From Azolla caroliniana (taxonomy: Eukaryota > Plantae > Polypodiophyta), in the NCBI GenBank assembly GCA_043228905.1, contig JBHGNT010000018.1, forward strand, positions 5,394,001 to 5,458,000: a stretch of DNA of 64,000 nt. Direction: 5' to 3'. Within the stretch, counting starts at the first letter, position 1. Each line of letters begins with the position of its first letter. Below, piece after piece: positions 13,500-52,301 of the stretch. Below the pieces are notes generated by a model. It was not told where the DNA came from. It ran no database searches and saw only the letters and a list, made by a program, of their open reading frames with translations. A program made the translations under genes and the position numbers.

Positions 13500-15099
13500 G
13501 AGAAAGATTATTATGTCTAAAGAATTGGCATCAGAGTCGGGTCTAATGGAGCTAAAAGAGAACGACTAGCCTCCACCTAACAATGGTCGTCCAACAAACA
13601 TTAGTCTCTCCCTTTCTTGAGTGAGTGGGCCTCCACATAAGATAGAACTATTGAGTCCCTTTTGGGATTTGTATATATGTACCATTCACAGCTGTAAAAT
13701 TTTTGTAAGTGCTGGAAAGAGCTTTGTTTTAGAAAAACAAAAACAAAAAAAAGAAGAGTTGGGAAGAGGGAAGGCATTGATGGATGGTAACAGGAGAGGC
13801 ATGAGAAGGAGAGAGTGTCTGGACTATGAATACAATAGACAAGCGTGTAATTCCCTCTCCGATTCCATGGGATTCAATTCAATTGATGAAAGTGGAGGGA
13901 GTCGGGACTCTTTTGCATGTAATAAATGATTGTGCCAACAAGAAAAGCCATGAAAACTTTTTCGTTGCTTGTATTAACATGATGAAGCTTTTTTGTTCTT
14001 TTTTTCGTTAACATGTATATATTCACAATCCAGATAATGAAGGCCTTTTTTAAAAAAATTTGCATGTGTGGCCGTGGGTTTTCCTTTCCAAGCTCATGAT
14101 TGACAATGTCGGCCAAAGCCCTAGGCAGCAACAGAAAGTAAAAGTGTGCCCCATCTAGAGAGGGAGATTTGTTCGTCTAGCATGGAATGGACATCGTAAC
14201 TGCAAGGGTGCCTGTATAGAGACAATCAAAATATTCTCCACGCAAGCAAAGAAACCATAATGTCTATAAAAAAGAAGATCTTTTAAAAGAAAGGAAATTC
14301 ACTTTGACAAACTATCCTATAAATGGGAACATTATAAGGCCTTCTTAGGTTGATTCCTCATGGAAATATTCTTTTGTGTTTTCTCATTCCCAAGCACATG
14401 AGATATATAGATCTTCATTTTAAGAGACTCTACAATTGTAAGTTATATAACCAATGTGTAAGTACCTCGGCACTTGATGACTAGATAGTAAAAACCTAGT
14501 TACATCCTTTTCTCGGTTGTTTGGGCCCAAAATAACAAACTTGTAGTACGCATTTTGCGGTAGACTTTTTATGAACCACAAGTATGTAGACGAAATACGA
14601 CGATTTTCTTTCGTCCCCATAATGATACTCTTGTCTTCATGTGTAAAAGCTTCGATCGCATTGAATGCATTGAATGCGTTTCTAACCAAATCCGCAAGCA
14701 GCTAGACCCTAGTTAATGCACAAATAGTTTAAAAAAAACATAGAGAGATCGATCGACGTTTGCGCAGAATTCCAAACTCGTTGGATGCGTGTACTCGTAA
14801 CCTTCTTGTGCACCACATGTAGTTAGGAGTTCTTATGGATTGAATGTTCTCCTGAATCATTTCAATTCACTCATGCAATCAATTCATTCGTTCAATTATT
14901 CATAAATCATTCATTCATGAGTGGAAAGCAAGAGTAATCTTTGGGTCTAGGAGGAGTGGAGTGTGTTTCCCTCCTCTCTATCCAATGATCAATCCATCAT
15001 GAGAAGAAAAAAGATAGTCATAAAAGGGCACTCTTTCTCCAGACACCAATACCATGCACTTCATCACTATCTCATCTCTCTCTCTCTCTCCACTTCCTC

Positions 15100-17688
15100 A
15101 TGGGAGCTCCCCTGTTTCTTCTTATTCTTCTTCCTCTGTTTCTCTCTACCTTCCATGGAGCCTTGGCTGCAACACCACTGTATCAGGCCGGAAATGCCCA
15201 TTTCTCAACTCAGGATGATTCTTCCTCTAATCCTTCCTCCAATTCTTCTTCCAGCTTCTGGCTCTCCGATGACGGAAGCCTCACATTCGGCTTCAAATCC
15301 ATCGGTCTCAATCAATACCTTCTCTGCATTTGGGTAACTGCCGATATTAACAGAACACCGCTATGGTGGCCTTCCATCACAACCCCTAGTGTCACACAAG
15401 GAGCCACTCTCAACTTCACAAGCAATGGAAACCTCGAGCTGATTGACGCGAACCAATCCATGCTTTGGAGTATCTCTACCTCCAATGCTTCCTTTGCAAA
15501 GCTCCAAAATACGGGGAACCTACAGCTTTTCGACAGCTCGACGGAGAATTTGCAATGGCAGAGCTTCTCGGACCTCCGAGACACTCTGGTGGTGAGGCCA
15601 AGAGATGACGGTTCATTAACTTCTATAGTAGTAGATAAGTCTTATCTATTGCGATCTCGACCAAACGATAGCTCCTATGGTCCCCCCGGAAGGTTCCATC
15701 TTCAGACCGATACGTACTCGGTCGCGTATCTACGTGCATTGGATGTTGTCTATAATGTGGAATTTATCTACTTATATGCATATATCAACACAAGCCAAGG
15801 TGTTTTTGAGCTTAGCCGAGGTGGAGGGAAGACATATCAAGACAATTCATCCATGCCAATGAGCGTGCTTCGGTTAGATCCCGACGGAAATCTAAGGATC
15901 TATGCTTGGAATGCTTCACATTCCACATGGGACAGAGTATGGCAATTTCTCGACAACCAATGCCTCTTGGGAAGCCCTTGTGGGGCTTATGGCATATGCA
16001 AAGAAGACACAAATGGATCTCCGACTTGCACTTGTCCGGTCGGTTATCAACCTGTGGATACTCAGCTTCTTTCCCGCGGGTGTTACAATAGTTTGAACTT
16101 GAGCAGTCTATGTGGTAATAATTATAGTAATGGATCATTATCCATGGTCCCCAATCAGCAAAGTGATTATAATTACAATGACTTGACCAACAAAGAAGTT
16201 ACCGATATCGAGGAGTGCAAGAAACTATGCTTGCAGGAATGCGATTGCGTGGTGGCATCGTATCGGCTGCATGATAAGACATGCTTCCTTAAGGGCAATC
16301 AAACAACGCGGCTTCTCATGAATGGCTACGCCACGAATAACAATACTCTATTGATGAAGCTGTTCGTGCACCATCCGAAAGGAGGGGTGGAGAAATGGGC
16401 AGTTATGGGGGCAGTTATCGGGGTTCTCTTCGTAGCTATGCTGGTTGTAATAGCCACCATAATGTGGCGGTCGAAGGCAACAACAAGAGACCATGGATAT
16501 GTCACTGTGGTGGGAGATGGTGGGCCCATAAGGTTTACATATGACCAGCTGGTAGAGGCAACTCAAAATTTCAGTGAATTGTTGGGTGAAGGGGGGTTTG
16601 GGAAAGTATACAAAGGCAGAATCACAGTGGTAATGGGGAATGAGAAAAAAGCAAGTGAAAAGCAGCTCCCTGTTGCTGTGAAGGTGCTCAAAGGCACCAT
16701 GGGTGCAAGCCAAGGAGAAGCCGAAAAACAATTCAGAGCAGAAGTGAGCACTCTTGGCAAGATCCATCATGTCAATCTAGTCGATCTCGTGGGCTACTGT
16801 ATCGGAGGAGGGAGATCTCAGGGGAAGAGGATCCTGGTATATGAATACATCGAAAATGGTTCGTTAGCCAGGTTCCTCTCCGGAGAACCGAAGCCTCTCC
16901 CATGGGCGGTTCGATACTCCATAGCTGTAGGAACTGCTCGAGGCATTGCATATCTTCACCACGATTGCAAGCCACACATAGTGCACTGTGACATTAAGCC
17001 TGAGAATGTGCTCTTAGACCATGAGTTTACGGCGAAAGTCGCGGACTTCGGATTGGCGAGGCGGTTAGAAGAAGTGAAGAGCAATCTACTGATGTCGGGT
17101 GCACGAGGCACAAGGGGCTACATGGCACCCGAATGGTTGAAAACCGCCGAGATCACATCGAAAGCAGATGTCTACAGTTATGGAATCGTGCTGCTTAAGC
17201 TTGTGAGGGGATTTCATGAGAGAGCAAACGATGATGAATCCCTAGTGGATTGGGCATACCAGTTCATTTCTGCAGCCGAAAAAAGTCAGGACCATAAGGG
17301 ACCGAGCATTTTAAATGGAGGAGAAGATTCTCCCAACAAGGAAGAGAATCCAAATGGCCACATTCATGAGCACGAACTTGACAAGATCGAGATTCCGAGA
17401 GATGAACAGGAACCAGTAGCAGTTAGTTTGAAATCGGATAAGCGTGACTACGAGAGCCTTGAGAAAACTCGGGTGCTTAAGATCGGGCTATGGTGCATTC
17501 AATATCAGCCTGAATCACGACCGACCATGTTACGGATTGTTCAGCTCTTGGAAGGAAATGGTGAAGACATTGGTATCCCGTCTTACCCGGCTCCGAGTGT
17601 GGTCTTAGTAGGCTATCAAAGCACTAGCACCTCTACAAATATAGCTTCCTACATGGCAGACTCAGATGTGGCCATCTCTGCAAGGTAG
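15100..17688 (+). CDS. G-type lectin S-receptor-like Ser/Thr kinase (RLK2), 862 aa, intronless, non-RD
   Basis: Same domain order and motifs as RLK1; full open reading frame; divergently transcribed from RLK1 across a 1.6 kb spacer. Confidence 0.96.
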   Translation: MGAPLFLLILLPLFLSTFHGALAATPLYQAGNAHFSTQDDSSSNPSSNSSSSFWLSDDGSLTFGFKSIGLNQYLLCIWVTADINRTPLWWPSITTPSVTQGATLNFTSNGNLELIDANQSMLWSISTSNASFAKLQNTGNLQLFDSSTENLQWQSFSDLRDTLVVRPRDDGSLTSIVVDKSYLLRSRPNDSSYGPPGRFHLQTDTYSVAYLRALDVVYNVEFIYLYAYINTSQGVFELSRGGGKTYQDNSSMPMSVLRLDPDGNLRIYAWNASHSTWDRVWQFLDNQCLLGSPCGAYGICKEDTNGSPTCTCPVGYQPVDTQLLSRGCYNSLNLSSLCGNNYSNGSLSMVPNQQSDYNYNDLTNKEVTDIEECKKLCLQECDCVVASYRLHDKTCFLKGNQTTRLLMNGYATNNNTLLMKLFVHHPKGGVEKWAVMGAVIGVLFVAMLVVIATIMWRSKATTRDHGYVTVVGDGGPIRFTYDQLVEATQNFSELLGEGGFGKVYKGRITVVMGNEKKASEKQLPVAVKVLKGTMGASQGEAEKQFRAEVSTLGKIHHVNLVDLVGYCIGGGRSQGKRILVYEYIENGSLARFLSGEPKPLPWAVRYSIAVGTARGIAYLHHDCKPHIVHCDIKPENVLLDHEFTAKVADFGLARRLEEVKSNLLMSGARGTRGYMAPEWLKTAEITSKADVYSYGIVLLKLVRGFHERANDDESLVDWAYQFISAAEKSQDHKGPSILNGGEDSPNKEENPNGHIHEHELDKIEIPRDEQEPVAVSLKSDKRDYESLEKTRVLKIGLWCIQYQPESRPTMLRIVQLLEGNGEDIGIPSYPAPSVVLVGYQSTSTSTNIASYMADSDVAISAR

Positions 17689-22349: not shown

Positions 22350-25184
22350 GTTGTAATAACCCATATGGTCGATGTTGTGGAATCTTTGACCGACAACACA
22401 CATCAAAACTACGAACATAATCTTCAACAAACTCTCGAAGGTGAGGCCACCTATAGTTTCGAGAAACTAGCTCCAAAGTTTTGTGGATTCCAAAGTGCCC
22501 AGCCATTGGGTTGTCGTGACAATATTGCATTACTTGAAGTCGAGATGAACCATTTGGGACATACAAAAGAGTGTTGCGTAAAAGTAAACCATTATCCCAT
22601 TTAAATTGGTTATAATCTTTACGAGGATTCTTGGAGCTTGAAGAAGAAGCGCAATCTGAAATTATATGATTCAATACATCTTGAGCAAATTCATCAAAAA
22701 TGATATCTGTTCGGATTGAATCAAGAAGACTTGAATCTTCATATGCTTGAGAGGCATTAATAGTTAATAGTCATAACCGATTAGGCCCCAAGACGATTTG
22801 TTTTTGATGATCAAATGTGGGTTCTCCTGGTTGTGGAGCCAAATAAGATCATTGTGAGAGAGTATCGGCCTTTCCTTGTTGAACTCCTGGGCGATATGTG
22901 ATAACGAAGTCAAAATGCGTTAGAAACTGTGCCCAACGAGCTTGGCGGCGACTCAAGACTCTAACACTTTGAAAGTATGTGAGGTTTTTATGATCATTGT
23001 AAACAATGATTTGGTGGGGAGAACATTCTAAGAAATATCTCCACTGTTCAAACGAGTCTATAATGGCTAGAAGCTCTTTGTCGTGAATCTCGTAATTGAT
23101 CTCTACAACTTCGAATTTGCGTGAATGCAAAGCAATTGATGTAGCTTCCCATGATCTCCTGTCTATGACAAGATACTTCCTAGTGCAAAATCAGACGCAT
23201 CCACCTCGATGATAAACAATTTTTCTAGGTCAGCATGAAGTAGAATTGGAGCAGAAGTGAATGCGCTCTTTAGGCTTTCAAAAGCATTGGTTGCACTAGA
23301 ACTCCATGTGAATGACTTGTTCTTTTGTGTAAGCTTTGTGAGAGGCATCACAATGTTTGAATAATTCTTGATAAATTTGCAATAAAAATTTGCAAATCCT
23401 AAGAAACATTGAACATCACGCACTGAACGAGGTGGTTGCCAGTTTAGAATTGTCTGAACCTTAGATGGATCCATAGATATACCTTGTTGTGAAACCACAT
23501 ACCCCAAAAACTCCACGTGGTTTTGATCAAAGCTACATTTCTCAAGTTTGGCATAGAGCCCATATTCTTGTAAGCATTGGAAGACTTGGCGGACATGTAT
23601 GTCATGCTCTTCTTGAGTTTTTGAGTAGATCAAGATTTCATCAAGATATACTATGGTGAATGAATCCAAAAAATCGCGGAAAATATCATTCGCCATGTGT
23701 TGAAAAACCGCGAGCGCATTCATGAGACCAAAAGGCATAACTATGTACTCGAAATGTCCGTATTGAGTACGGAATGCTATCTTCCATTCATCTCTTGGAC
23801 GTATCCGAACAAGGTTATATGCACCTCGAAGATCTAGCTTCGTGAAAACTTTCGCTCCACTAAGATGCTCTAGTAAACTCGAAATCAAGGGTAGAGCATA
23901 TCTATTTCGAACTGTGATTTTGTTTAGACCTCGATAGTCCACGACCAGTCGTAGAGATCCATCTTTCTTCTTGACAAAGAAGATGGGTGCACCAACAAGG
24001 CTTGTAGAATGTCGAATGAATCCATTTGCTAAGTGCTCGTCTATATACTCTCGAAGGGCCTTGAGTTCGGAAGGTGATAGATTATATATTGGGCCCCATG
24101 GTGGCTCTTTCCCAAGTTGTAGATCGATAGGTCAATCATAAGGCCGATGGTTTGGGAGAGAACTAGCTTTAGCTTTGTTGAAGATGTCTTCAAAATCCAA
24201 GTACTTGGTAGGGAGGGGAGTACTTGCCCCTTGTGAGCTAGAGGATGGGTTTGCTATTACTGCAAAGACAAACATTTCATTTGTTTGCCCGTCTTCTCGT
24301 AATTTTTGTAGAGAGATGATCTAACTAGAGAATTGGAATGAAGATTCTCACTAATACTTACTTGATTTACTTGTCGTTTTGGCCTATGTGGGCATGTGAT
24401 CACAATGTGTCCTGAACCACCACAATACAAACATAGACGGTTTGCTCGATGTCTTTGCTTCTCAGCTTCAGATAAAGGCCCTCGACGACGTGTTACATCG
24501 AACTCCATTGGACTTGGACCACCTGATGGAATCATGTGTGAAGTTTGGGTAGTGCTCATAGGTGTCGAGGCTACTACCGAAGCATATGTTTGATTCGTTC
24601 TTGGTCATGACATTAATTGACGCTCCGAACGTCGCTCGAATAAGCGGTTGTCACATCGCACTGCACGACTTACCGCTTCTGTAAGTGATCTTGGATCTTC
24701 ATGAAAAGTGAATAGCAAATCCTTTACATCACTTCTTAGTCCATAGCGAAATTGATCCATTAAGGCTTCTTCATCCCACGGAATATCACAAGCTAGGAGG
24801 CAGAAATCTGTGGCATAGGCAGAGGCAGGACGGTCCCCTTGACGCAGTCTTCGAATCTTGTTAATCGCTGTTCTAACACTATCAGTGTCTCCAAAGTTTG
24901 CTTGAAATTCTCTAATAAAACCTTCGAAGTCTTGGAGAAGAGGAGACTTCTTTTCTAGTAGTGGTGCAAACCACGCTAATGCAATTCCTGTTAAGAGGGT
25001 CCCAACTAGTCCAACTTCAGGTGCATCAGTCAAATACCTATTAGGGTGCATATAAATTACTAGATGTACTTGGTTTAGAAACCCTCAAAACTATGATCGA
25101 TTACCATCGAACTTCCCAGGCAAACAAATCTTCGGTTCTTTGGGAGAGGTTTGTTGCATTGAAGCTTGTTGATGAAGAGACCAC

Positions 25185-25847: not shown

Positions 25848-26099
25848 CCGCAATGTTGTTTCGAGTTGCGATACACGTGTCGATAACTCATCATATTGTT
25901 GTGCCTTTTCTATGCTTACTTGTTGCAAATCTCCAAGCAATCGTTGATTCTCTTGTTCTAACGCCACAAACTTATTTGCGAGATGCTCTAGTTCAGAGAC
26001 GACTCGAACATACTCTTGCTTGCTAACTGACTCCATGGAGAGGATAACATTTGGCAATATTCTCAAGGAGAAGGAAGGAAGGAGAAGAGAGTGAAAGAG

Positions 26100-26146
<47 letters not shown>

Positions 26147-26725
26147 AAGGAAGAAAGAGAGAAGGTAGGAAAATTCTGGTTCAAACTGTCAAGGCCAAAG
26201 TTAGGAACGAGTTTTAAAATGAAGACAAGAATGAGAATGTTAACTCTTCGGGCCGGACAATGGCCTAACACAGGGTGTCTACGTGAGACACTTCACCAAA
26301 GGGTGTTACGACAACCGGATTAGACTTCAACGCTTAATCCGACTTAGTTAAGTTACTTATTAGGATCGTCTTTCATAACACGCGTAAGATATAACAATTA
26401 AGACAGAACGGCAATTAACACAGAGAGATAACAACGCTTAAGCTTTCATTAATAAACCGCCCTCTATCACATTGTATCCGGGCCTTTAAATAGGTTTCCG
26501 GTCTATATTACAAAACGGTGCCATCCGCACCTGTTCGGGATTGGTCCGGATCTGGAACGGCATACCGATTCCGGTCCGTCCGTCCACACTCATAGCTTAA
26601 TTACAACCACATTCCTACTACTTAATTAGCTCTCCGTTTCCCACTCTGGACTCCTTTGCTGGCCGGTAACACCTGGCACGCCCGTGGGACAGTACCTTGT
26701 ACGTCGAATCCACAACCGACCCTTG

Positions 26726-29500
26726 CTATTCTTCGTCCAAAATGTCCAGAATGATTTGTTCGAGAGGCTCCAATGGTTCATCTGGAAGTGGTTGTTGTTG
26801 TTGTTGCTGTTGCTGCTCTGTTGCTGTCTGCTGCGGTTGATCCGTTGGTGGTTGCTGCGGCTGCTCCTCCGTTTGTGGCTCTGACACCGGCGTCTCCGTC
26901 GTTGCTCCCTGCGTCGTAGTGGTCTCCGGTTGACTGGTTCCCGGCTGGCCCTCAGCCGGCGACGGTTCCTCATCACTAAGGTTAACCGTTGTCGCTTCCC
27001 GTGCTTTTTCTTCCCGTACCCGGGACCGCTCGTAGCTTTCAAACTGGATTTGAGCGTCCAGCCTATCATCGTCCAGCTGAGCTACGAGCTGCCTGACCTG
27101 CACCAGCTATTCATCTGCCAGGACTTGGAAGTCGTCGGCCAGCTCGTCCTGTATGGCGGTGAAGTCCTCGGAAGTCAACGTATAATAGTCATCTCCTTCC
27201 TTCCGCCAGTTTGCCACATCCGTCCGTAGCAACTGGAGTTCCACCGCGTTTTGTGCCCACTTTGTCCACCATTTTACGGAGCTTTCATCAATCAAGTGTT
27301 TCGTCTGATTCAGCCATGCCCGGAGGATGGATTGAATCCGGCTCGTTCCCAATTGCGATTTGGTTTCCGCCGCTTGCCGTTCCTCCTTCAGTTGTTTGAT
27401 GATTTTGACGTTGTCCTCCGCCTGCGTCTTGTAATGCGTCAATTGCCTTTGATATGTACTTTGTAATTTCTGCAATACTGTTGACGCTCTCTCTTTGTCT
27501 TCCTGCTGCTACCTCTGGAGCTCCATCCGGACCTTCTCCGCCTCTTCCAAGCGTCTTGTATTTTCCGCCCGTTCGTCGGCGATCGCCGTCGCGGCCCGAT
27601 CAACTGCCTGCTGGAGCTCGGCCATCCGTTCTTTATGCTCCGTTTCCAGCCGTTTGTAGTCCCGGTGCAGGTGCTCAAAATCATCCGTCTTTTGCTTGAG
27701 CCGTGCGTTGATCTGACGACGGGCGTGGTCCTCGCGGTCCTTCTGCTGGCAGAGCTCTTCCTTTAGCCGTTCAATCTCTGTTTCCGCCGTTTTCCGCAGC
27801 TTGTCCTTTTCCTGCAGCACTTTGTCTTTCTCCTCCTTTAGCCGGTCGTACGCTTGATGGCCTTTCCGAAGGCTCTCCTCTGCCCGGCGGAGGTTCTCAG
27901 CAGTCTTCTTTAATTCGGCTTCGGCCGCCGTCTTCAATTCTCGTTCACGGCTCCTTAGCGCTTCTTGTGCGGCAAGTTCCTCTTTCAATTCCGCAAGCTC
28001 CCGAGCTTGCGCCGTATCTCTCGCCGGAACGGTTTCCGTTGCCGGGGTCCTATTGCTATACAGATCGTTCCGTTTCTTTATTCTGTACACTTATCGGAGT
28101 CACTGGTGATTGGATCCGTATTTTGGCCATCTCTGTCGTGACCTGATCCAAATCTTTTTCAAGGCACTGGATTCTGGACCGGGCTGTCTCTAGTTGTTCG
28201 GTTGTGACGAGCAACCGTTCGCTTTGCGCTCTTTCTTCCGCCTCTATATACCCCACTGCTCCGGCTATCTGTTCGCCTATCCACCGGAGCCACAGGCTAC
28301 CGGTGCCTTGTTGTGCTTGTACGGAGGTTTGATAGATGGGCTCACTTGTAGAGGGGTGGTCCCGCCTGGTTGCGCAGAGTTGCAGTTCCTTTTCTACCCG
28401 TGGACCATCCTGCTGTCATGGTTCCCCTTGCGCTTCTTCTTGGCTGACCGAGGGAGGCTGCAGTGACCTTTTCGGCTCTGGCGGGATGGGATTTGTCGGT
28501 GTTGCCGATGGTGCCGGGGCTTCTGTTTCTGGTGCCATCTGCACAGGTTCCGGTTCCTTCCTTGGCGTCGGAGTCTCAGTATGGGTAGCCGGTGTTCCCT
28601 CTATCTGAGGGTCCGAACGTTTCCCGGCTGCCTCAACGGTCCTTGCCGACGACCGTCACTGGAGGTGCTCCGTAGGCTCCTCCTCTATTTCCTCCTCCTG
28701 AGCTCCGGCATTGAGTTTTGCCGCCAAGGGGTCCGCTTCTCGATTCACCGGTCGGCGGAGTGTGACCTTTACAGGCCGTGCCAGTGGTTCCTCCTGCGCC
28801 TCCGTTGGGCGCTTCCGGCAACCGCTTCCTGTTGCCGCCTGTTCTGCATCCGCCGCCTTTCCCTTAGTGGCTTCGAGGCCAACAGTTGTTGCCGTTTGGA
28901 AGCCGTCCTTGATGTGCTGTCCGGCACTCTTCCTCGCTTCTTGGGCTGGACGGTCTAAACGGGTGGCACCAGCAAGGTGAGCCACTGCGTTACGGCGTGC
29001 CATATCCTTCGTCCGTCTCGGCCTTCTTTGTCGTCTTTGCCTCTGACGATCTCGATCGCCACACACAACCCGTCTGCAATCAATACCGGCCAATCCACCT
29101 TGATCCCTTCATAGGTGGCGATGATCATCCCTGCCCGGTTCTGCGGCATGACAGGGGGTCTAGGGTATACGTGGCCGTATTCATGGAGCACACGAGCAAT
29201 TTCGCGGAACAACATATCTCCGCCGCCCTGTGTCCAGTAGCCCTTGCTGGCTAGAGAGTACTCACCAAAATACCTGATGAGTTGCTCCGGGGTTGGATTG
29301 TCGATCGTGAGTATGCCTCCCTCCAGAAGGCCTGTTAACGCTCAAATCGCCTCTGCCGTTATGACCTCTGTATCGATTTCCTTGATCACTTTGTCGGCTT
29401 CTTTGTGTGGCGGTACTTCCATCATCATCAAGAAGCCCTCGAGCCCATGTTGCTTTAGCCATGTCTTGGCGGCTTCCAACAACGTTTGCGGGTCCATCTC
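26726..29500 (-). pseudogene. Extra (env-position) ORF of element E, frameshifted: globular N-terminus, Pro-rich linker, long coiled coil, Gln-rich tail
   Basis: Same-strand ORF fragments 29342-29719, 28955-29215, 28056-28256, 27509-28090, 27107-27475, 26726-27103 between integrase and 3' LTR; heptad-rich E/K/R segments. Confidence 0.75.
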
Positions 29501-32500
29501 TGTGTCGGGGTCAGATTGCGGTGACGAGGATGGATGGTGATGAGAACGGGGTTGAGAAAGAGAGAGTTCAGAAGGCGGGGGTTCTCTGTGCGCAGGTTCT
29601 CGTCTGATGATCTTGCAACGTTTCGGTGCTTCTGTGCTCCTGGGTTCGCGAAAGTAGAGGGTCTCTACGCGCAATGGTTTTTGTCTGTGCATTCTAGCGC
29701 CTTTTTCGAGTTTGTGCATGTCGCGTACTTAAAATAGCATTATGTCCTGTGGTGGCGCTTTAAATGCCCACTACGTACCTTTTCGCTCCACGCTCTTTCA
29801 TCCATTCATTCCTCGCTTTTGCATGATTGGTTTTTTTTTTTTTTTTTCAGTTATTATTATTATTAGTGTCACGTCACATGTCCGTTGGTCCTCCCGGACC
29901 CTTACCGGCCTCATTCTCTCCGGTTCCCGGCTTGCCGTCTCTGCCGTCTTGGTGGTTGCCGTCGGTCCTTTGCTCAAACGGGTTCTTAGGCATCGGTCCT
30001 CTATATGCCTTTAACCGGAATCCGTTGACCCATTTGCCCAGCACTTCGCCGGCAAGTGTCCCCAACTGGTAGGACCCATTATACTCCCATGTTAGCCAAT
30101 ATGGTCCGGTCCATCTAAACCTTGGTTTACCCGGCATCTTGCCCATCCGGGCTTGGAATACTAACACCGGTTTGCCGATTGCAAACATTTTTTCGTTACC
30201 TTTCCTGTGCCGGTCGACGAATGCTTTCCGTCGCCGTTGCTTCAATTCTAAATGTAGGATGCTGGCCAACCGTTGTTCCTCCAACTCACACAGCGCTGTC
30301 AACCTTATTGTCTCCGACTCCTTCTCGTTCAGCCGTTCTCGTAGCTAGATCCGTAAGCTAGGTACTTGAAATTTTACTGGCATGACCGCCTCGAGTCCGA
30401 ACGCCAACCGGAACGGTGTTGTTCGGATGCTCGTTTTGTATGCCGTCCGGTATGCCCAAAGCGCGCTATGTAGCTTTGTGTCCCAATCCGTCCGGTTCTC
30501 GTTGACGATCTTCCGAAGGATGTTCTGGAGCGTCTTGTTTGTTGATTCCACTAATCCGTTCGCCTGTGGATAGTAAGGTGTGCTTCGTTTGTGGACCACG
30601 ACATAGAAGGTCGTTAGGTTTTCCACTACTTGTCCGAGAAAGTGCCCCCCTTGGTCACTTATCAATTCAATGGGGCATCCGTAACGACACCAGATGTACT
30701 CATATAGAAACTTTGCCGTTGACGCAGCGGTGTTATCCCGTAAAGCTTTGGCCTCCACCCATTTCGTGCAGTAATCCGTAGCAACGATAACGTACCGATT
30801 ACCCGTTCTCATTGCCGGTGGCTTGAACGGTCCTACAAAGTCCAGCCCCCACTTTTGGAATGGCTTGAGTGGTAGTACCGGCTGGTGTGGCATACGAGCC
30901 TGCTCCGTTGGCTGGCCCATTCTCTGGCATAGGTCACATTCTTTTGCGTACCGTACCGCATCTCTTAATGTCGTTGGCCACCATAGGCCACTTTGCCATA
31001 TTTTTCTGGCGGTCGCATCTCCGGCATAGTGACCTCCGGCAACTCCGCAGTGGGCTTCCCTCAGTATCAGTTCCTTTTCATCGTTGCGCACCGCCCGTCT
31101 CCATATGCCATCAGCGCCCTTGTGGTACAGTGTGTCTTGCAGTAAGCAGAAATGTCGGCTTTGTACCGCCAGGCGTTTCCGGTCGTCCCGGTTCAGCTCT
31201 TCCGGAGGCAGTCGTGTGCTCAGAAACTGGTGCATATTTGTGAGCCACTTGTTTTCCTGGGCCACTGTCTCATCTGTTGTCGTCTCCGTAGTGACTCGAA
31301 ACAGCTCCGCATCCGAAAACTCATCCGGTACTCCGTCACCCGTCTCTCCGGACTCTAATCGTCTAATCGGCTTAAGTAATCCGCTACGACATGCTGTATA
31401 CCAGGTCGGTGGAATATTTCAAACTCGAACTCCTGTAACAATAAGGTCCACCGGGCCAATTTGCCGGTGAGTGACGCTTTGGACACCAGGTAAAGGAGTG
31501 TCGAATGATCTACATGGAAGGAAAACTTCCTCCCCAATAAATAGTGCCGAAACTTTGTCACACTGTAGATCATTCCTAGAGCTTCCCGTTCCGTAGTAGA
31601 GTAGTTCCGTTCTGCTTGGGATAGCTTCTGGTTGGCATAGTACACTGGCTGGTACCACTTTGGTTTCGTAAGCTGCATCAGTACGCTTCCGATTGCGATG
31701 TTGGAGGCGTCCACGAACACGTGAAATTCTTTACTCCAATCTGGAGGTTGTACTACCGGTGCCTGCGACAATAGTACCTTGAGGGCCTTATACGCCCTAT
31801 CCTCAGTATCGGTCCACTGGAATGGGGTCCGATGTACGACGGCATGCAACGGTGTAGCCAGGTCGGCCAAGTATCGGAGCATCCGGCTGTGCCACCGGAT
31901 CTGGCCTAAGAACCGGCTCAATGCCTTTGCCGTTCCCGGCGCCGATGCTTCTAATATGGCTTTCACTTTGTCCGGGTCGACTGCAATACCTTCTTGGCTC
32001 ACGATATGTCCTAATAAAGTTCCACTGGACACGCCAAATACACACTTTGCCGGATTCAAGCTTAGCCGATACGCTCTACACTTTTCTAAACAAAGACGGA
32101 GGTGCTGAAAATGGTCCTCCTCCCGGCTATAGACGGCGAAATCTGCATAAAAGCCAGTATATATTCACCAAAGATTTCCATGATGATTCGTTGAAACGTT
32201 GCCGGTGCCGTTTTGAGTCCGAACATCATCACCACGGCCACAAACACCCCCCATTCGGTGACGAATGCCGTTTTCTCCTGGTCGTCGGGGTGCATCCGGA
32301 TCTGATTATACCCACTGAATCCATCTAGGAAGCTATAGACCTCATGGACGGCGACGGCATCCAACACTCCATCTGTGAACGGAAGTGGAAACGCATCCGT
32401 TACCGTAGCCGCATTGAGTTTCCGGTAGTCCACGCAAACTCGAATTTTTCCGTTCTTCTTCGGTACGACTACGATGGGGCTCAGCCATGTCGCTTTCTTT

Positions 32501-33759
32501 ACCGAACGGATAAAGCCAACTCTTAGCAGTTTGTCGATTTCTTCCTTGACCTTGGCAGCATAATTGGGATTCATCCGGTACCGTCTTTGTGCCACTGGTT
32601 TTGCGTCCTTGCTCAAGTGCACTTGATGCTGGTATAACTGAGGGTCGAGTCCTCGCATATCTTCGTATGACTAGGCGAACACATCCCGGAATTCCGTGAG
32701 AAGTGTTATCATCGCCGTTTTGTCTTCGGACTTCATCTCCTTGGCGATGTGCACCGGTTTTGCTTCGTCCGTGGTGCCTAAATTCACCTCTTCCAGTTGC
32801 GATGCTTTTACGCGCTATGAAACGGCCATTTCCCGTTCCAACGCTTCCTGCGCTTGCCGTAACTCCCGGATTGCGTCTTTATCCGGTTCTGTTTCCGCCT
32901 CTTCCGGTTGCGGTAAGTATGGTGCTACGGCTTCGGTAATGTCAATTTCGAAGAGGGGTATGATCTTCGGGTTTTCCTGCAGGTATTGAGCTTCTTCTTC
33001 GTCCGCTAACCCTTCTAGCATGTTGACGCATTCCGCATACAACGGTGTACATTCCTTGCCAGTGCTCGTCCTTGGCTGTGTTGGTACCCGTACCTTGGCT
33101 TTTCCTCGCCGGAAGGTAATTATATTTTTTCGCCAATTCTGTTTGATATGTGCCGTTTTCAACCATGGCCGCCCCAACAATAGCGGGTGTGCGCCTTGTG
33201 CCTGTAATTGTAGCACTACGGCCGACATGTGAAATGTATGCCCGCCGACGGTGACTTCTAATTTCCGTATTAATCCTGTCGGCCGCACTGAGCTTGTATC
33301 GTCCATCCGCAACCAGAACGGACACGGCTCCCACTCGTGGATTCCTAGGTCCTCACACATTCGGAGGCTTATTACATTTACCCCAGAGCCTCCGTCTATA
33401 ATTGTGCCGGGGAGTTCTTTCCCTTTTACAATGGCAGTGATTACCGGACTGCTGGTGTCTACCACTGTTGGTCCCTCCTCCGGATTCGAGAAGAGTACCG
33501 GTGCCGGTGATGGTTCTCCTGCCGTCATGGCCGTCTTCAGTCCTTCCGTGAATCTTGGCACGAGTTGTAGGCGTCTTCCTAGTGGTAACGTAATCTGGCA
33601 TTCTTGCAACGCCTGCCATGTCTCGTTCTTGGAGTGACTACCGCCGGCAAGCCCTGTGTCATGAACAGTACTGAGACAGAGAAGGAATCAGTACTAAACG
33701 AAGGATTAGTACTACGAGAGGTGTGAACTTCTTCGAGAGAAGGGAGAAGTGAGTGAGAC

Positions 33760-33798
<39 letters not shown>

Positions 33799-34087
33799 GA
33801 TGATAAGAAAGATATTTATTATATGAAGAGAATATACAACGGCGGCTAAAAGGCTTAAGACTGGCGTTGAACCAATTTGGTTCAACATAATGCCTAGTGC
33901 CCTCTTTTATAGTGTTTTCAGGAGTAATCCTGAAGCTTCTAGAATGTTCCAGAGAAATCTGGAATATACACTAATTTCCTATAATAAAATGTAAATGAAA
34001 ATAATATCCTACGTATTACAATAAATGTTCTAATGGTCAAGAGCTCGACCCATATAACCTAAGGTCATGGGTTCGAGTCTTGCCATA

Positions 34088-37000
34088 TCATGACACTATC
34101 CCCCCTTTAAAACGACGAGTGTCACGAGTCGTCTTGGATTGAGGACCCGGTTTGTGTGGATATTGACGATGGAAGTCTTCAAGAAGAGCACGAGCATTGG
34201 TTACATTCTCGATCGGTTCCCAAGTACGTTCGCTGGGACTATAGCCTAGCCAATCGACTAGATAGTAGAGCTTGTTGCGAACAATCTTGGAATCAAGGAT
34301 GGCGGCAACCTCGTACTCCGGCCCATCTTCAAGCTCGATCGGGGGTGGAGGTTGGATAAGACGTTCTGGGATGGTGCTCTCGTGGTAGGGTTCGAAGAGA
34401 GAACTATGAAACACCGGATGTATCCGAAGTTGAGGAGGTAGATCGAGACGAAAAGCGACATCATTAATCTTTCCAATAATACGGAAAGGACCTAATCGCC
34501 GATAATCCAACTTCTCACATGGGCGAGTAGCCTTGATGTGTCGTCGTAGCAGCCACACCCGATCTCCAATATTAAAACTAGATGGAAGTCGATGACGATC
34601 CGCGTAGACCTTGTGTGTTTGTTGAGCTTGCTGGAGATGAGTAGATAAATCTGCTTGTATCTTGCGTAACCGCTCCAAACGATCCTCCGTGCACGGATTT
34701 GTGGACACCTCTGGGGTTTCAAATACACTCCACCGGGGGTGACATCCCGTATAAGCATAAAATGGCGTAACTTTAGTGGATGCGTGGATAGAGTTGTTAT
34801 AGGCAAATTCGGCGAAGTGGAGAATATCTGCCCAGTCGTCCTGATGATAGCTGAGAAAGCACCGCAGATACTGCTCCAACGTTTGATTTGTTCGTTCAGC
34901 TTGGGCGTCAGTTTGTGGGTGGTAGCCGGAAGAGAGGTTACAAGTGACCTTGAGCATGTTAAAAAGGTGCTTCCAGAATTTTGACACGAACTGGGGTCCA
35001 CGATCGCTGATGATACTATCGGGGAGTCCATGATGCCGACATACTTCACGCATGACAATTTCGGCAGTGTCTTCACTGGAGATCTCCTTAGTACATGGCA
35101 AGAAATGAGCCATCTTCGTATATCGATCGACCACCGTTAGAATCGCATTGAACCCCTTAGAGACTGGAAGATCTGTGATGAAGTCTAGAGCAATGGATTG
35201 CCACGGCTTGCTTGGAATTGGTAATGGTTCTAATAAACCATATGGATGATGCCTTGGCATTTTCGCTCTGCAACATGTATCACAAGTCCGAACAAAATCC
35301 TTGACAAATTGTCGCATACAGGGCCACCAGAATGATCGTTGTACTAAATGTAATGTTTTAGTACTACCAAAATGCCCAGCTGTATATGTGTCATGACAGT
35401 TTTGTACTACTCGAAGCCGGCAAGAACCATTAGGAACATACAAAAGTTCTTTAAAGAAGAGTAATCCATCATGGTATTTGAATTGCCGATAGTCCGTACC
35501 TGGTGGTTGCGACTGTGAACACGACGTTCGAGAGGGATCAATTTGTGCTAGTATAGCTTGGGTGAACGCATCTGTCTTCAATTCTTCACGTATGGTATCG
35601 ATAACGCGGGAATCCATAGGCATGTCAAAGATTTGTGTTGCTTGTAGTCGTGCCGGTCCCAAGATGACTTGTTTTTGGTTATCGAAAGCTGGCTCGCCGG
35701 GACAGGGTGCTAGATACGAACGCCGTGATAATGCATCTGCCTTCCCTTGGTGCCTCCCCGGACGATATGTAATTTTGAAGTCGAAACGCGTGAGGAAGTG
35801 GGCCCACCGAGCTTGACGTCGATTCAGCACACGAGCATCCTGAAAGTAGGCAAGATTCTTGTGGTCACTAAATATGGTGACTGGATGAGAGGATCCCTCC
35901 AGAAAATGCCTCCATTGCATAAAAGAATCCACTATTGCCAATAGCTCCTTATCATGAATTTCGTAGTTGATTTCGGCGGCATCAAACTTGCGTGAGTGGA
36001 AAGCCACAAGATGTAGCTTTTCATCATTCCCCTGTTGTGACAGAATGCTCCCCAATGCAAAATCCGATGCGTCAGCTTCGATAATGAATGGCTTCTCCGG
36101 ATCGACATGAGCTAGAATTGGAGCCGATGTAAATGCTTTTTTAAGACTCTCGAAAGCCATGTCCGTTTCTTCAGACCAGATGAACGGTTGTCCCTTCCTG
36201 GTAAGTTGTGTGAGAGGTAGAACGATCTTTGAGTAATCTTGTATGAACTTCCGGTAAAAATTGGCAAAGCCTAAGAAGCATTGCACATCCCGTACCGAAC
36301 GCGGAGTCTGCCATTCTACCACCGTTTTGACCTTAGCTGGGTCCATGGAGATGCCTTCTGACGAAATGATGTAGCCGAGAAATTCCACTTGGTTGCACCC
36401 GAAACTACATTTTTCTAGCTTTGCATACAGACCATGTTCTCGAAGTCGTTTTAGTACTAATAGTACATGAGAATCATGTTCTTCTTGGGTCTTTGAATAA
36501 ACCAGTAGATCATCCAAATAGATGATCAAACAATCATCCAATAGATCTCGGAATATATCATTAGCCATGTGCTGGAAGACTGTCGGCGCATTAGTGAGGC
36601 CGAACGGCATGACAGTATACTCGAAGTGCCCATATCTGGTGCGAAACGCAGTCTTCCATTCGTCTCTTGGTCGGATCCGTCCGAGGTTATATGCTCCCCG
36701 TAAGTCGATCTTCGTGAAGAACCTGGCACCATTGATCCGTTCTAAAAGACTTGAGATAAGGGGAAGAGCATACGTATTCCTGATTGTAACCTTATTCAAG
36801 CCACGGTAATCTACAACGAGACGAAGCGATCCATCTTTTTTCTTGACGAAGAAAATGGGCGCACCGGCTGGAGATTTCGAATGCCGAATGAAACCATTTT
36901 CCAAATTCTCCTCTATATAGGCCCGAAGGACTTCCAGCTCGGTTGGTGACAAATTGTAGATCGGTCCCCATGGTGGCTCTTTTCCCGGTTGTAAATCGAT

Positions 37001-37680
37001 GGGGCAATCGTACGGTCGATGATGAGGAAGTGTGTTGGCTTGTACTTTATCGAACACATCGGTGTAATGACGATACTTCTCGGGAAGTTGAACGGTGGAT
37101 TCTTCTTTAGTGGTGTTGGAGGGGTTTACTGATATTGCAAAGAGGAACATTTCCTCCTTGTGCCCTTCTTTACGCAACTGACGTAGCGAAATGGTTGCCA
37201 TCTTCTGAGTTGACCCTTGGGTTTGTCGACACCGGATTTCTCTTGTTCTCCAATCTATGTCAGGGTTATGTAACTCGAACCACGGTAGTCCTAAAACTAT
37301 AGGATGTTCTGGGATACTAATAATATTAAATGATACTACACATGCTAAGTTATCTAGGACAATATTAATGGGCTCTGACTCTTCTAGGATATTTCCGGAA
37401 GCAATGGGACGTCCATCAATGACTACTACAGAGGCTGGACACTGGAGTTTTCTTAGGGATATCTTATGAGCTTGAGCAAATTTCTTATCCATAAAGCAAG
37501 AGTTAGCTCCGGAATCTAGGAGTGCTAGGACATGTACTGGAGGGGTACTTTTAGTACTAACTATTACTTGGGCTACGAATACATCACTAACTTGCTTAGT
37601 GGGAATGGAACCACTAATGGGTTGCACAGATCTAGGGCTGTCCAACCAAACGGCTCCTATTTTGGCTGGACTTAGTCGTT
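34088..37680 (-). CDS. pol: Pol of element A (PR-RT-RH-INT-chromodomain), in the -1 frame relative to gag
   Basis: Open frame of over 1185 aa: ALLDSGA, YLDD, EADASD, HHCC zinc finger, SDRG, GPF, chromodomain YEVAAILDS..YLVDWLGY..TWEP. No in-frame ATG at its start. Confidence 0.95.
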
Positions 37681-38823
37681 TAACTCTTCTTCTAACTGAC
37701 TAAGGACATCAAATTTGTTTGCTAGATCTAGGATATTAGTACTATTAGGACTATCAGATATCCCTACTGAAATAGGCTTGGATTTAGTACAATTAGAACT
37801 AGCGACTATTTGGTTTACCTGTCTTCTTGGCCTATGGGGGCAATTTATTGCGATATGTCCTGGTCCACCGCAGTAAAGACATAGTCGATTTGTACGGCGT
37901 CGCTGCTTTTCTTCTTCGGATAATGGCCCTCGACGACGTGTAGTGTCAATCTCCATCGGAGTCGGAGTATTCGTTGGAGGCGCATTATATGACTCCCTCG
38001 GAAAAGGTCTTGCTACCATTGAGGCGTAGGTGGGCTCTGATCTTGCCCTTGGCATCTGTAGCTGTCGTTTCGAACGTCGCTCAAAGAGGCGGTTGTCACA
38101 TCTCACCGCGCGACTGATTGCTTCTGTTAAGGACTTTGGCTCTTCGGGGAAGGTCAAGAGTAAATCCTTGACGTCGTTGCGTAAACCATAACGGAATTGC
38201 TCCATCAACGCTTGATCATCCCAAGGGATATCGGCGGCGAGTAGGCGAAAATCTGCAGTGTATGCGGAGGCTGGACGGTCACCTTGGCGTAATCGCCGGA
38301 TTTTGTTGATTGCGGTCCTGATGCTGTCAGTATCTCCGAAACATGCTTTAAACTCACCTAGAAACTCTTCAAAATTGTTGAGTAACGGAGATTCCTTTTC
38401 TAATAGTGGAGCGAACCATGACAACGCTGAGCTACTTAACAAAGTGCCTACTAAACCCACTCGTGATGCATCGGTGGGATATCGGGAAGGATGCATTTGA
38501 ATAACTAATCGTACCTGGTTAAGGAACCCTCTAAACTGTGATCGCGTTCCATCGAACTTCGTGGGAAGGCCAATCTTAGGTTCTTTATGAATCCCTTGTG
38601 TTCCGGGCCCGTGTTGTTGCATCGCTACGATGGTGGCTTCGAGTTGTTGCACGCGTAACGCAAGTTCCCCATGCTGTTGTTGCGTTTGCTGCTTTTCTAA
38701 GGAGATTTGCTGAAGATCCCCCAGCAACCGTTGGTTTTCTTGTTCCAAAGCATGGAACTTCTCCTTCAAGCATTGAAATTCTGAGAAAACAGATTGATAT
38801 TCTTCAGCGCTAACAGTGGCCAT
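37672..38823 (-). CDS. gag: Gag of element A (383 aa; coiled coil, sushi/PEG10-type capsid, CCHC knuckle)
   Basis: EPKIGLPTKFDGTRSQFRGF, LRQGDRPASAY, LCLYCGGPGHIAINC. Confidence 0.93.
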   Translation of the reverse strand: MATVSAEEYQSVFSEFQCLKEKFHALEQENQRLLGDLQQISLEKQQTQQQHGELALRVQQLEATIVAMQQHGPGTQGIHKEPKIGLPTKFDGTRSQFRGFLNQVRLVIQMHPSRYPTDASRVGLVGTLLSSSALSWFAPLLEKESPLLNNFEEFLGEFKACFGDTDSIRTAINKIRRLRQGDRPASAYTADFRLLAADIPWDDQALMEQFRYGLRNDVKDLLLTFPEEPKSLTEAISRAVRCDNRLFERRSKRQLQMPRARSEPTYASMVARPFPRESYNAPPTNTPTPMEIDTTRRRGPLSEEEKQRRRTNRLCLYCGGPGHIAINCPHRPRRQVNQIVASSNCTKSKPISVGISDSPNSTNILDLANKFDVLSQLEEELND

Positions 38824-39000
38824 AGGATGAAAGAAAAGAGGAATAAAAGATTAGTAGGACATGAGAGAGACAGAAGGTAGGGAAAATTGGTTCAAACTAT
38901 CATGAACAGTACTGAGACAGAGAAGGAATCAGTACTAAACGAAGGATTAGTACTACGAGAGGTGTGAACTTCTTCGAGAGAAGGGAGAAGTGAGTGAGAC

Positions 39001-39051
<51 letters not shown>

Positions 39052-39894
39052 GATGATAAGAAAGATATTTATTATATGAAGAGAATATACAACGGCGGCT
39101 AAAAGGATTAAGACTGGCGTTGAACCAATTTGGTTCAACATAATGCCTAGTGCCCTCTTTTATAGTGTTTTCAGGAGTAATCCTGAAGCTTCTAGAATGT
39201 TCCAGAGAAATCTGGAATATACACTAATTTCCTATAATAAAATGTAAATGAAAATAATATCCTACGTATTACAATAGATGTTCTAATGGTCAAGAGCTCG
39301 ACCCATATAACCTAAGGTCATGGGTTCGAGTCTTGCCATATCATGACACCCTGCGGTGTTCTCCTTTTGCTGCTGTAAGTCTGTGACATTCTGCTCGTTT
39401 GCTTTCTTTACCCATTCCGTTGCTTGTTTCCAGATGGTCTCCTGCGTCTCCCATTCTTTGGCCATGCCCTTCGACCTTGTGGTCACCTGCTGCAGGTCTG
39501 CCACCTTAGGGACTACCATATTTACCGCCGGTCGTTTTTCATAGCTCTTCACCAGGCATTGGTTACTATAATGGCCTTCCTGTCGGCAGTAATAGCAGTA
39601 GGCTTTCCGGGCATTGCTAGATTCGGCATTGTCTGTTGTACCCGGGGCAGGTCCTACGATACGCGCGGGGTTTTGTACCGGTTGGCTACTTGGAGCTCCT
39701 TGTTCCGGATCCCGAGGGTAGCCGCCTTTTTTAAAATGCCGTTTTTTGTTATAGCTCTTCTTATTACGGTACTCTTGACGGGGTTGCCCGTTATATCTGC
39801 CGTATTCCTCCCGTTGTTGACGATACCCGGGGGAGTGCTCCCAGTCGTACTGTTCGTATCGTCTATCGTAATCCTGGTACCGATTATGCCGGTC

Positions 39895-40020
39895 ATAGTT
39901 CTCTCGCCGATCACCGTACCGAACATCATTTTCCCGTTGATCGCCATACCGGACATCATTTTCCCGTCGCTCGCCATACCAGACATCATTTTCCCGTCGC
40001 TCGCCATACCGGACATCCTG
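39895..40020 (-). repeat. 30-bp coding minisatellite in the gag of E (DVRYGERREN x ~4)
   Basis: CGCCATACCGGACATCATTTTCCCGTCGCT unit repeated about four times. Confidence 0.88.
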
Positions 40021-42450
40021 TGCCGGTCGGTCACGATCCATTCGCCGCCAGCGTTCGTCTTCTTCATCCCGACTGCTGCGTGGCTCAATTTGTCGGACGG
40101 GCGGTGCTTGCCGAGTCAACAGATTATACTCGCACCTATCCGTCGTATGGCTCTTGGATTGACAGATTACACATTGCATTCTCATAGTGCATTCTAGAGC
40201 CGAGTGTCCGGAATTCAAGCAGGTTGTGCACTGTATTGCTTGCCGAAACCGGAGGTCTTCATCGGATGGTAACGCCCGTTGAAGTGCGCCCAGTGTGAGC
40301 CAGGAGCTTGTCTTTTCCATCTCTTTCACCCGGTCAATGACCTGGTCGATGGTACTTGTGCGGAAATCGATTACCGTGCAAACCGTGCGTAGGGGTTCCC
40401 GGAGCGCGTTTAGGAATATCGTCCGTAATTCCTCCTCCGAGGGTGCACGGGCAAGCTGACTATGCATCCGTTGAAACCAGATGACAAATTGGGGAATGCT
40501 CTCCCCTGCCTCTTGCCGGATGGTATAAAATAAGCCTACCATTATGGTCTGGTCCACCTCCTTTTGAAAAAAATGCATGAATTTAGCTTTTAAATCTGCA
40601 AAGGTGTTGATGGTAGACGGGTCCTGTGTCCGGCGCCATCTTGTTGTTGGTCCCTCCAATGTGACGCCAAATTCCGCTATCTTAGAGCGTTCTTCTTCTT
40701 CTGGGGTCAATCGCTGGGACACATGGTTGGCTTCCCATGTCTGTTCAAAGGCGTGAACATGAGCTTCCGCGTCCGGATCATCTCTATACTTGGAGTACTG
40801 GAACGGCATGTCGTCGTCCGGTATCGGTGCACGGGCTGGTAGTGTTGGTGCTCGTTCCGGAATTTTCTCCGGTGTCGGTGGTCTTTCCTGATTTGATTCC
40901 GGGGTCGGTTGTTTCTCTTCCTTTGGTGACGGAGGCCTCTCCTCTTCGACTTCCGGTGTCGGAGGTCGTTCTTCTTCTGCTGGTTCCGGGGGTTCCAGCA
41001 ATAGCACTTCCGGTTCCGGTTCCGGTGTCGGTAAGGTATCCGATCCTTCGTCCTCCGGTCCGCCCGGGGTTTCATTGCTGCTACGGTAGTTCGTGTGCAC
41101 GTTGTATTCCCCTTCGGAGTCCGATTCATATGCTGAAAAGGCCTCTGCTTCGCCTTCTCCGTTTGCCAACGTGTGGAGAAGGGATTCGGTTTCCCGGAGG
41201 CTGCTTAGGCTGCTGCCGTCGTCCGGGTGCGATGTTTGCTGTAACCAGAGGGAGTCCTCCGCTACTCTCCGGATTACGTTGGAAAACGAGCGATCCACTC
41301 TAATTTCCTGCGCCGCTTGCTGGAAAGCCTCGCGTCTCCTTTGCCTTTAGGCAAGGCGTCGAGTTCGATCTGTAACCAGGTCGTGCGTTGATCTAGACAT
41401 CCATCCGTGCCGTCGTTCGCTACAAAAACAGGAATCGTGGTCACCAAAAACTGTGTTAACTCTTCGGGCCGGACAATGGCCTAACACAGGGTGTCTACGT
41501 GAGACACTTCACCAAAGGGTGTTACGGCAACCGGATTAGACTTCAACGCTTAATCCGACTTAGTTAAGTTACTTATTAGGATCGTCTTTCATAACACGCG
41601 TAAGATATAACAGTTAAGACAGAACGACAATTAACACAGAGAGATAACAACGCTTAAGCTTTCATTAATTAACAACCCTCTATTACATTGTATCGGGGCC
41701 TTTAAATAGGTTTCCGGTCTGTATTACAAAACGGTGCCATCCGCACCTGTTCGGGATCGGTCCGGATCCGGAACGGCATACCGATTCTGGTCCGTCCGTC
41801 CACACTCATAGCTTAATTACAACCACATTCCTACTACTTAATTAGCTCTCTGTTTCCCACTCTGGACTCCTTTGCCGGCCGGTAACAGAGAAGCGAAAGA
41901 TGTGAGAGAGATAAGAAGAATTTGATAATGTATTAACAACGAGAGCAATGTTTACAAGAATATGACGAAGACTGGCGTTGAACCAGAATGGTTCATCAAT
42001 AGTCAAATACATGTTTATATAGCATGGTTTGGATACATGCATGCTTGCCACCTCATAGGCATGCATGATCGCCACTTGGCATTCATGCAAGAATGGCCCT
42101 TGGCAATCATGCATTAGCCTATGCAAGGTGGTGACATTTCAATAGTATTATTATATGTATTTCCTATTGATTAATAGAATTTATTATTTAATATATACAA
42201 TATAATGTATCCAAATGGATGGGTTGTATGCCTTCTTTGAGGAGGTCATGGGTTCGAATCACCATAAAGCTTATTGGGTTTCGTATACACATGACAGACA
42301 ACGATCAACAAAGGAACTGCGATAATCGTTCTTGTTTTTTTTTCTATTTTTTCTTCTCCATTCTAATCATGTATATGGTCATATTTAATTGTTTTTTCAT
42401 TAACTCAATGATGTTGTAGTGGTAATTAATTGGTTATATAAAACGTTTAC

Positions 42451-52255: not shown

Positions 52256-52257
<2 letters not shown>
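49672..52257 (-). CDS. G-type lectin S-receptor-like Ser/Thr kinase (RLK3), 861 aa, intronless, non-RD
   Basis: Complete SP/B-lectin/SLG/EGF/PAN/TM/kinase architecture; kinase half closest to RLK1. Confidence 0.96.

Positions 52258-52298
<41 letters not shown>

Positions 52299-52301
<3 letters not shown>

Follow-up and report, generated by a model that had tools for sequence, protein, structure and literature searches.

A mirror-image site of tRNA-Arg(TCT) type stands in place of the polypurine tract (PPT) across a clade of Ty3/gypsy elements, one copy of which lies in the 64,000-nt stretch of Azolla caroliniana DNA analysed here (hereafter, the window). It is the plus-strand primer that fixes where U3 ends in integrated DNA (PMC3185511); the sequence standing 2 nt from U3 in all readable members must therefore define it. 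Judging from sequence comparison, it is reasonably probable that a second host tRNA-Arg anneals to the minus-strand cDNA and primes the plus strand. With the same moderate confidence, an abundant plant Ty3/gypsy clade would start both DNA strands from host tRNAs at mirror-image bipartite sites, without a polypurine primer generated by RNase H. Very probably the primer is either a host tRNA or a tRNA mimic encoded by the element itself, and each of the two would be an undescribed route of plus-strand priming.

Layout of the element

The element (26238-41887) carries two 434-nt LTRs, identical at 420 of 434 positions without gaps, with a GAGAA target duplication on both outer sides. Its minus-sense orientation, proposed in the first-pass annotation, was confirmed: Gag, RT, RNase H and integrase, all interrupted by stops or frameshifts, and a TATA-like box, CTATTTAAA, lie on the minus strand. 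The features are listed below in window coordinates.

26233-26237, no strand: target-site duplication GAGAA, left copy
26238-26671, minus strand: 3' LTR, 434 nt, TG...CA, 420/434 identical to the 5' LTR
26672-26673, plus strand: 2-nt spacer separating tRNA site and U3; reads CC in the window and CA in about 95% of the depth
26674-26690, plus strand: antisense PBS; first-strand cDNA complementary to the last 18 nt of tRNA-Arg(TCT), minus one base
26691-26703, plus strand: looped-out hairpin, 13 nt, between tRNA positions 58 and 59
26704-26716, plus strand: second box; complement of the T-loop of tRNA-Arg(TCT) and of its 5' T-stem strand
26717-29873, minus strand (sense): region of the 3' extra ORF, broken; without a Pfam family at cut-off or an internal G-rich tract after pol
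29874-33656, minus strand: pol in several frames (stops, frameshifts), with protease-like region, RT, RNase H and integrase
33657-39348, minus strand: nested chromovirus with its own CCCTG duplication and an ordinary G-rich PPT, foreign to the host element
39349-41346, minus strand: gag (PF03732)
41415-41446, minus strand: 5' PBS TGGTGACCAC, starting with TGGTGACCACGA at 41446, then a short hairpin and a CGAAC box
41447-41453, minus strand: 7-nt spacer between LTR and PBS; the minus strand reads CA-CAGTTTT-TGGTGACCACGA
41454-41887, minus strand: 5' LTR, with the TATA-like box at 41709-41701
41888-41892, no strand: target-site duplication GAGAA, right copy

The domain order is Gag-PR-RT-RH-INT, where RT, RNase H and integrase were assigned by Pfam, and the protease, which gave no Pfam match, by a DGGS motif only. 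The catalytic D-E-D-D motifs of RNase H are present. Named relatives of the RT/RNase H region, at 43-56% identity, come mostly from liverworts and a fern, which makes a non-seed plant the likely host. The PBS-like sequence reported after the 5' LTR was found again, and its TGG-led block is conserved; it sits 7 nt from the LTR, beyond the 0-5 nt of the Neumann 2019 criterion.

At the opposite end, the plus strand reads LTR-TAACA, then CC, then TGGCACGCCCGTGGGAC (26674-26690), the geometry that had been described from the letters alone. The reported lack of a PPT next to the 3' LTR also held, the longest purine run in the adjoining 40 nt being 4. A clean tract is likewise absent on the plus strand before the other LTR, where the best 12-mer has 10/12 purines, is A-rich and lies 12 nt off the LTR.

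A 30-nt tandem repeat in gag (39886-40035) encodes repeated RRENDVRYG(E/D) units. The nested chromovirus, inserted between gag and protease, is near-intact, with a chromodomain and a Gag with DUF4939; we take it to resemble the Tcn1 type, and a decayed relative of it lies at about 22784-25141. The window also contains a divergent, intronless pair of S-domain receptor kinase genes (B-lectin, S-locus, PAN and kinase domains; about 900 aa each, 80% identical) at 10857-17688, repeated as a block 38 kb away (about 49666-55649), where the second gene is broken. A Copia element at about 57031-61182 has LTRs ending in CAA and not of the TG...CA form, a GTAGT duplication and a PBS that is a variant of the tRNA-Met type.

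Match of the site to tRNA-Arg(TCT)

The conserved block at the 3' junction spans about 45 nt (26668-26712), compared with the 17 nt first described. The sequence TGGCACGCCCGTGGGAC is the complement of the last 18 nt of a tRNA-Arg(TCT) gene (L083, from a bacterial MAG, used as a non-host stand-in) minus one G. The match resumes past the 13-nt hairpin, the following 13 nt being complementary to T-loop and T-stem. In the Rfam alignment, the missing base corresponds to the acceptor/T-stem junction and the hairpin falls between positions 58 and 59. In tRNAs, position 58 usually bears m1A, and an 18-nt retroviral PBS ends there. The first-pass identification as tRNA-Arg is thus borne out, with a non-host tRNA as reference, and its link to the Tat group is not.

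Two tRNA genes were retrieved by patterns built from the site: L083 and L081, the latter from a phage contig. Neither is from the host; both are tRNA-Arg(TCT) according to ARAGORN and tRNA according to Rfam. Independently of the retrieval pattern, both carry the TCT anticodon and end in CCA directly after the pattern. One pattern search of viral contigs gave two matches, one tRNA-Arg(TCT) and one non-tRNA; in these contigs, no relative of the element was found, and no match to the first site pattern or to the long pattern for the 5'-PBS tRNA. In the predicted duplex between the site and the stand-in tRNA, about 30 of the last 36 nt are paired, at -58.5 kcal/mol versus -25.8 +/- 3.9 for 300 shuffles (RNA parameters), an energy that is partly circular, since the stand-in was retrieved with a pattern derived from the site. 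A rough estimate, which assumes about 60 tRNA ends, puts the chance that 10 nt match one of them within 6 offsets at about 3e-4, and that of a 17/18-nt match with one gap at about 3e-7.

The motif is not itself a tRNA gene: neither the window nor any of 37 related loci contains a tRNA according to ARAGORN, and Rfam gave no tRNA match at 26000-28000. A literature search with the motif letters found no plant tRNA or PBS listing. We presume that a plant tRNA-Arg with an end matching the site exists; the 13-nt sense PBS matches in two related loci, L014 and L035, point to a tRNA with such a 3' end in related hosts.

Conservation in public runs

Contigs of 4 public runs, among them a leaf metagenome and runs under two organism labels, were aligned over 26400-27000. 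Summed depth peaked in bin 26673-26693 in 3 of the runs, and this bin was among the top ones in all four; its depth was in each run 9 to 19 times that of bin 26715-26735, a ratio which is not a copy number. Among the variants listed for the four runs, none of at least 5% fell within 26674-26708. About 95% of the depth at position 26673 is A, and at 26709 between 25 and 32% is C, an allele with which the G:T wobble to the tRNA becomes a Watson-Crick pair. Contigs have loose ends before 26668-26674 and behind 26712-26718, so that subfamilies with other LTRs and other internal sequence carry the same block. At the 5' PBS, conserved to about 41429 in the four runs, the fourth base of the window (T) is the minority allele: 97-98% of the depth reads TGGCG, not TGGTG, in every run.

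Related loci and integrase tree

An integrase profile search yielded 511 confirmed loci, out of an estimated total of 2500, and the best 80 were retained. The motif was searched in all of them; 34 were mapped in detail, most of these ending before the 3' LTR, and the 3' junction was readable in 11. In 6 of the 11 the tRNA site lies exactly 2 nt before TGTT, namely L007, L012, L014, L028, L053 and L033, with integrase identities to the window element of 80, 89, 79, 70, 86 (partial) and 59%, respectively. L007 and L053 are near-identical in integrase, and the seven sites, window included, therefore represent about five lineages. The junctions of L012 and L028, found upstream of the coding part, are linked to their integrase by the contig alone; L028 is rearranged. 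The longest purine run at the seven junctions is 3-4, and none of them shows a PPT. Three further motif matches were discarded: L015 (inside an ORF, with no LTR following), L076 (no LTR following) and L035, where the match is the 5' PBS of a neighbouring reversed element and the locus' own 3' junction is missing.

The remaining 5 of the 11 readable loci have a G-rich tract at the LTR: L054, L065, L075, L079 and L040, with 43, 44, 42, 45 and 47% integrase identity. For L040 and L079 the far LTR end could not be bounded, and the tract of L040 is weak (run of 5). L050 and L060, labelled as PPT-bearing in the tree, are not counted among the five, their tract lying right after pol and their 3' LTR outside the contig.

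In a tree of 42 integrase rows, which are unnamed loci, the window element and the six site-bearing loci are all to one side of a branch supported at 100/98. The site/PPT state requires a single change, a value as low being reached in 1 of 500 shuffles. Resolution at the root is poor. The simpler polarity is that the tRNA-site clade lost the PPT, since PPTs are present on several outside branches. The antisense site is thus conserved, and the PPT absent, beyond the window copy, a point that the first-pass annotation had proposed to check; an ordinary tract, which it had named as refuting, was found in relatives only outside the clade.

Two observations concern the region after pol. In four outside relatives (L040, L050, L054, L060) a second, internal G-rich tract lies just after the pol stop; none was seen there in 9 inspected members of the tRNA-site clade, which have A-runs or nothing at this place. 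Long sense extra ORFs of 936-1170 aa, partly coiled-coil-like, follow pol in L014 (1381-4890), L007 (1542-4403) and L053 (916-3723); they match no Pfam family at cut-off, and the corresponding region of the window is broken (about 26717-29500).

Plus-strand priming: host tRNA or self-made primer

The reading that we prefer, priming of the plus strand by a host tRNA, would proceed as follows. As tRNA-primed LTR elements all do, this one would start from a tRNA annealed to the 5' PBS of its sense RNA, and RNase H would clear the RNA off the cDNA after strand transfer. In the folded cDNA the first 9-10 bases of the site are predicted to be unpaired (in the window element, L007, L053, L014 and L012) and could serve as a toehold. 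The tRNA-Arg(UCU) would then pair through its last 18 nt, its T-arm pairing beyond the hairpin, which would be looped out at 58/59. RT would extend the CCA end across the 2-nt spacer into U3; finally, RNase H would strip off the tRNA, leaving the 2 nt to be trimmed by integrase.

Some features count against this scheme. A conserved one-base deletion and the 13-nt insert make pairing with the tRNA imperfect, and a tRNA on DNA is itself a substrate for RNase H. In favour of the scheme, the base missing from the other sites is retained in L033.

A possible alternative, which we hold to be clearly less probable, is that the primer is made by the element itself: its RNA, a T-arm-like hairpin joined to an acceptor strand ending in CCA, would mimic a tRNA, survive RNase H, be cut after CCA and act as a non-purine PPT, so that no second tRNA would be necessary. 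Such a primer would already be in place, like a PPT, and PPTs have no common consensus and are not necessarily all purine (PMC3185511). The sense RNA of the site is predicted to fold as a stable hairpin (-11 to -19 kcal/mol), which adjoins the last 10 nt. The inner stem of the hairpin, whose covariation also counts for the host-tRNA scheme, changes in step among members (GTAC/GTAC, GGAC/GTCC, GCGC/GCGC): 94% of the cells are paired, 4 pairs are altered on both sides, and the covariation score was reached by none of 500 shuffles, with the structure read from the same sequences that were scored and L033 aligning poorly there. However, the T-stem contains an A.C mismatch in the majority allele (26709), its cells are 71% paired with no compensatory change, and L033 has no T-arm likeness. 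A self-made primer also leaves unexplained the exact identity to one isoacceptor across 59-89% integrase identity, while the 5' PBSs of the same elements differ. Persistent identity to a single isoacceptor favours an outside partner; the stable predicted hairpin and the imperfect match favour the mimic.

Variants of the site bear on the same question. In three high-coverage contigs (L007, L014, L053) and in the majority allele at 26709, the changes are for the most part wobbles of G:T or U:G type, on the side of the cDNA (3/4 in the core). Over all sites the tally is even, with 3 changes of cDNA type, 3 of RNA type and 1 transversion. L012 (451-457) and L033 (10315-10321) have CTA instead of CCA, which would mismatch the second-last base of the primer, and L028 has a further C>T in the site; these changes offset much of the wobble argument for a host tRNA. 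The C>T changes fall in low-coverage or decayed copies, and those of cDNA type in high-coverage contigs or majority alleles. The CTA in L012 and L033 and the C>T in L028 may thus represent decay in old or low-coverage copies; alternatively, CTA may be a subfamily trait. The 3' LTRs of L012 and L033 both begin with TGTTGATCGGCC.

The 5' PBS and the two ends of the element

The 5' PBS occurs in three forms within the clade, TGGCGACCAC (window family, L001, L012), TGGCACGCC (L014, L053, L035) and TGGCAATCC (L033), with the 3' site unchanged. In the window element (41415-41446), L001, L012, L014, L053 and L035 it is short, at 10-14 nt; behind it come a spacer, in many cases a hairpin, and then a CG[A/G]AC box that complements the T-loop of the tRNA. 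This suggests an extended bipartite PBS. The box lies 28-34 nt from the start of the PBS in 6 of 7 cases, and this layout of short PBS, spacer and box is that of the 3' site. With a pattern made only of the 7-nt end of the 5'-PBS type and the T-loop, the match was overlapped by a tRNA at 38 of 62 phage loci, of type Arg in 26, Asp in 6, Trp in 3 and Ala, Ser and Glu in one each, which lends weak support to tRNA-Arg. The nearest PPT-bearing relatives have TGGCGCCG-type PBSs, which we take to be the tRNA-Asp type of Athila.

In the clade, CA is followed by C at either end. This, together with the shared layout of PBS and box, fits an origin by inverted copying of the U5-PBS junction. In the tRNA-priming scheme the site would likely have arisen once, by an inverted copy of this junction taking the place of the PPT-U3 junction, helped by the inverted termini of the LTRs.

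The first-pass annotation had also suggested that the element might replicate from the transcript of either strand. In this case the antisense transcript would be the packaged genome RNA, the site at 26674 the first-strand PBS and that at 41446 the primer site of the second strand, with a tRNA at both ends. The 3' site does have the more textbook geometry (2-nt spacer, 17/18 nt), and it matches over a longer stretch. The TATA-like box nevertheless shares its strand with gag-pol, and replication from either strand is disfavoured, since the relatives with a PPT carry their PBS in this 5' position too, behind a similar T-rich spacer. We regard an antisense genome as improbable.

Even less probable is that the tRNA-like 3' end pairs with the element's own 5' PBS, for circularisation or self-priming of the minus strand, the plus strand being primed otherwise. 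The two ends are of the same tRNA type in L014 and L053, where 11 and 8 nt, respectively, could pair, but in the other 3 of the 5 elements compared (window, L012, L033) possible pairing is limited to 1-3 leading bases. The ends do not covary; the 5' PBS varies independently of the 3' site, and pairing between them is therefore not required. The U3 boundary and the fixed 2-nt spacer would also be left unexplained.

A one-off tRNA capture, a copying accident or an assembly artefact, to which the decayed state of the window copy (broken pol, nested insertion) could point, is the least probable explanation, given a block conserved in runs of two organism labels and a leaf metagenome, and in six loci with different LTRs, and seven readable junctions of the clade that all lack a PPT.

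Classification and comparison with known systems

The sequence features place the element among the non-chromovirus Ty3/gypsy elements, with OTA-like traits. A chromodomain is absent from the window element and from L001, occurring only in the nested chromovirus. Membership of the Tat group, whose tRNA-Arg PBS the first-pass annotation had invoked, is not supported by Pfam, which found no archaeal RNase H in the window pieces or in the intact 1937-aa polyprotein of L001. With the OTA superclade, Athila and Tat/Ogre/Retand (PMC6317226), the element has in common the 5-bp target duplication, the long internal region, the extra 3' ORF and the lack of a chromodomain. It agrees with Athila in lacking an archaeal RNase H, and does not have the tRNA-Asp, -Asn or -Ala PBS dominant there. 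According to PMC6317226, tRNA-Arg is a dominant PBS type in TatIII and Ogre and is common in Retand. Thus the element differs from Tat in the archaeal RNase H, from most Athila in a PBS that is not of tRNA-Asp type, and from both in having no PPT. Traits of Phygy and Selgy are not shared: the target duplication is of 5 bp rather than 4 bp, and a 3' region of about 3 kb is found, versus coding sequence nearly filling the internal part.

Canonical LTR elements such as Ty3, Ty1 and HIV-1 share with this element the LTRs, the target duplication, a 5' tRNA PBS (here a putative one), the RT, RNase H and integrase, and a primer end abutting U3 (PMC5371799, PMC3185511). They prime the minus strand with a tRNA at the PBS and the plus strand with an RNase H-resistant PPT (PMC5371799, PMC3185511), whereas here the PPT is replaced by a bipartite tRNA site of opposite polarity. 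Bipartite PBSs engaging acceptor stem and T-arm are also described for Ty1 and Ty3 (PMC5371799, PMC3185511); in Ty3, unlike here, the second half of the PBS is located within U3 on that same RNA and functions in priming of the minus strand. Tf1/Sushi, Tcn1, TAR and copia, which are self-primed or half-tRNA-primed (PMC6317226, PMC5371799), show that priming signals are replaceable in evolution, but the changes in these elements affect the minus-strand primer, and here it is the plus-strand primer that is replaced. Helenus TRIMs are likewise LTR elements with tRNA-derived sequence; their tRNA-like part, however, is a promoter within the LTR, and they are non-autonomous and retain both PBS and PPT (PMC10886601). 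Three types of primer for the minus strand are described in the parts of PMC6317226 that were covered, where no substitute for the PPT appears. No description of a tRNA site in place of a PPT was found in the literature covered, which included few subscription journals; the large supplements of PMC6317226 might list such elements.

Significance

In the sources cited, priming of the plus strand from a PPT is treated as a step common to LTR retroelements (PMC3185511, PMC5371799, PMC10886601). A high-copy, successful clade without a PPT would show that this step is replaceable, and would be a natural system for studying what RT and RNase H require in a plus-strand primer. The missing base and the 13-nt insert are built-in barcodes, by which a single sequencing experiment would separate a tRNA primer from a self-made one. 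Annotation tools that orient or validate elements by PBS or PPT would likely mis-orient or drop the members of this clade. If priming by a host tRNA at both ends is true, reverse transcription in these elements would be symmetric, and a rule common to retroviruses and LTR retrotransposons would be broken.
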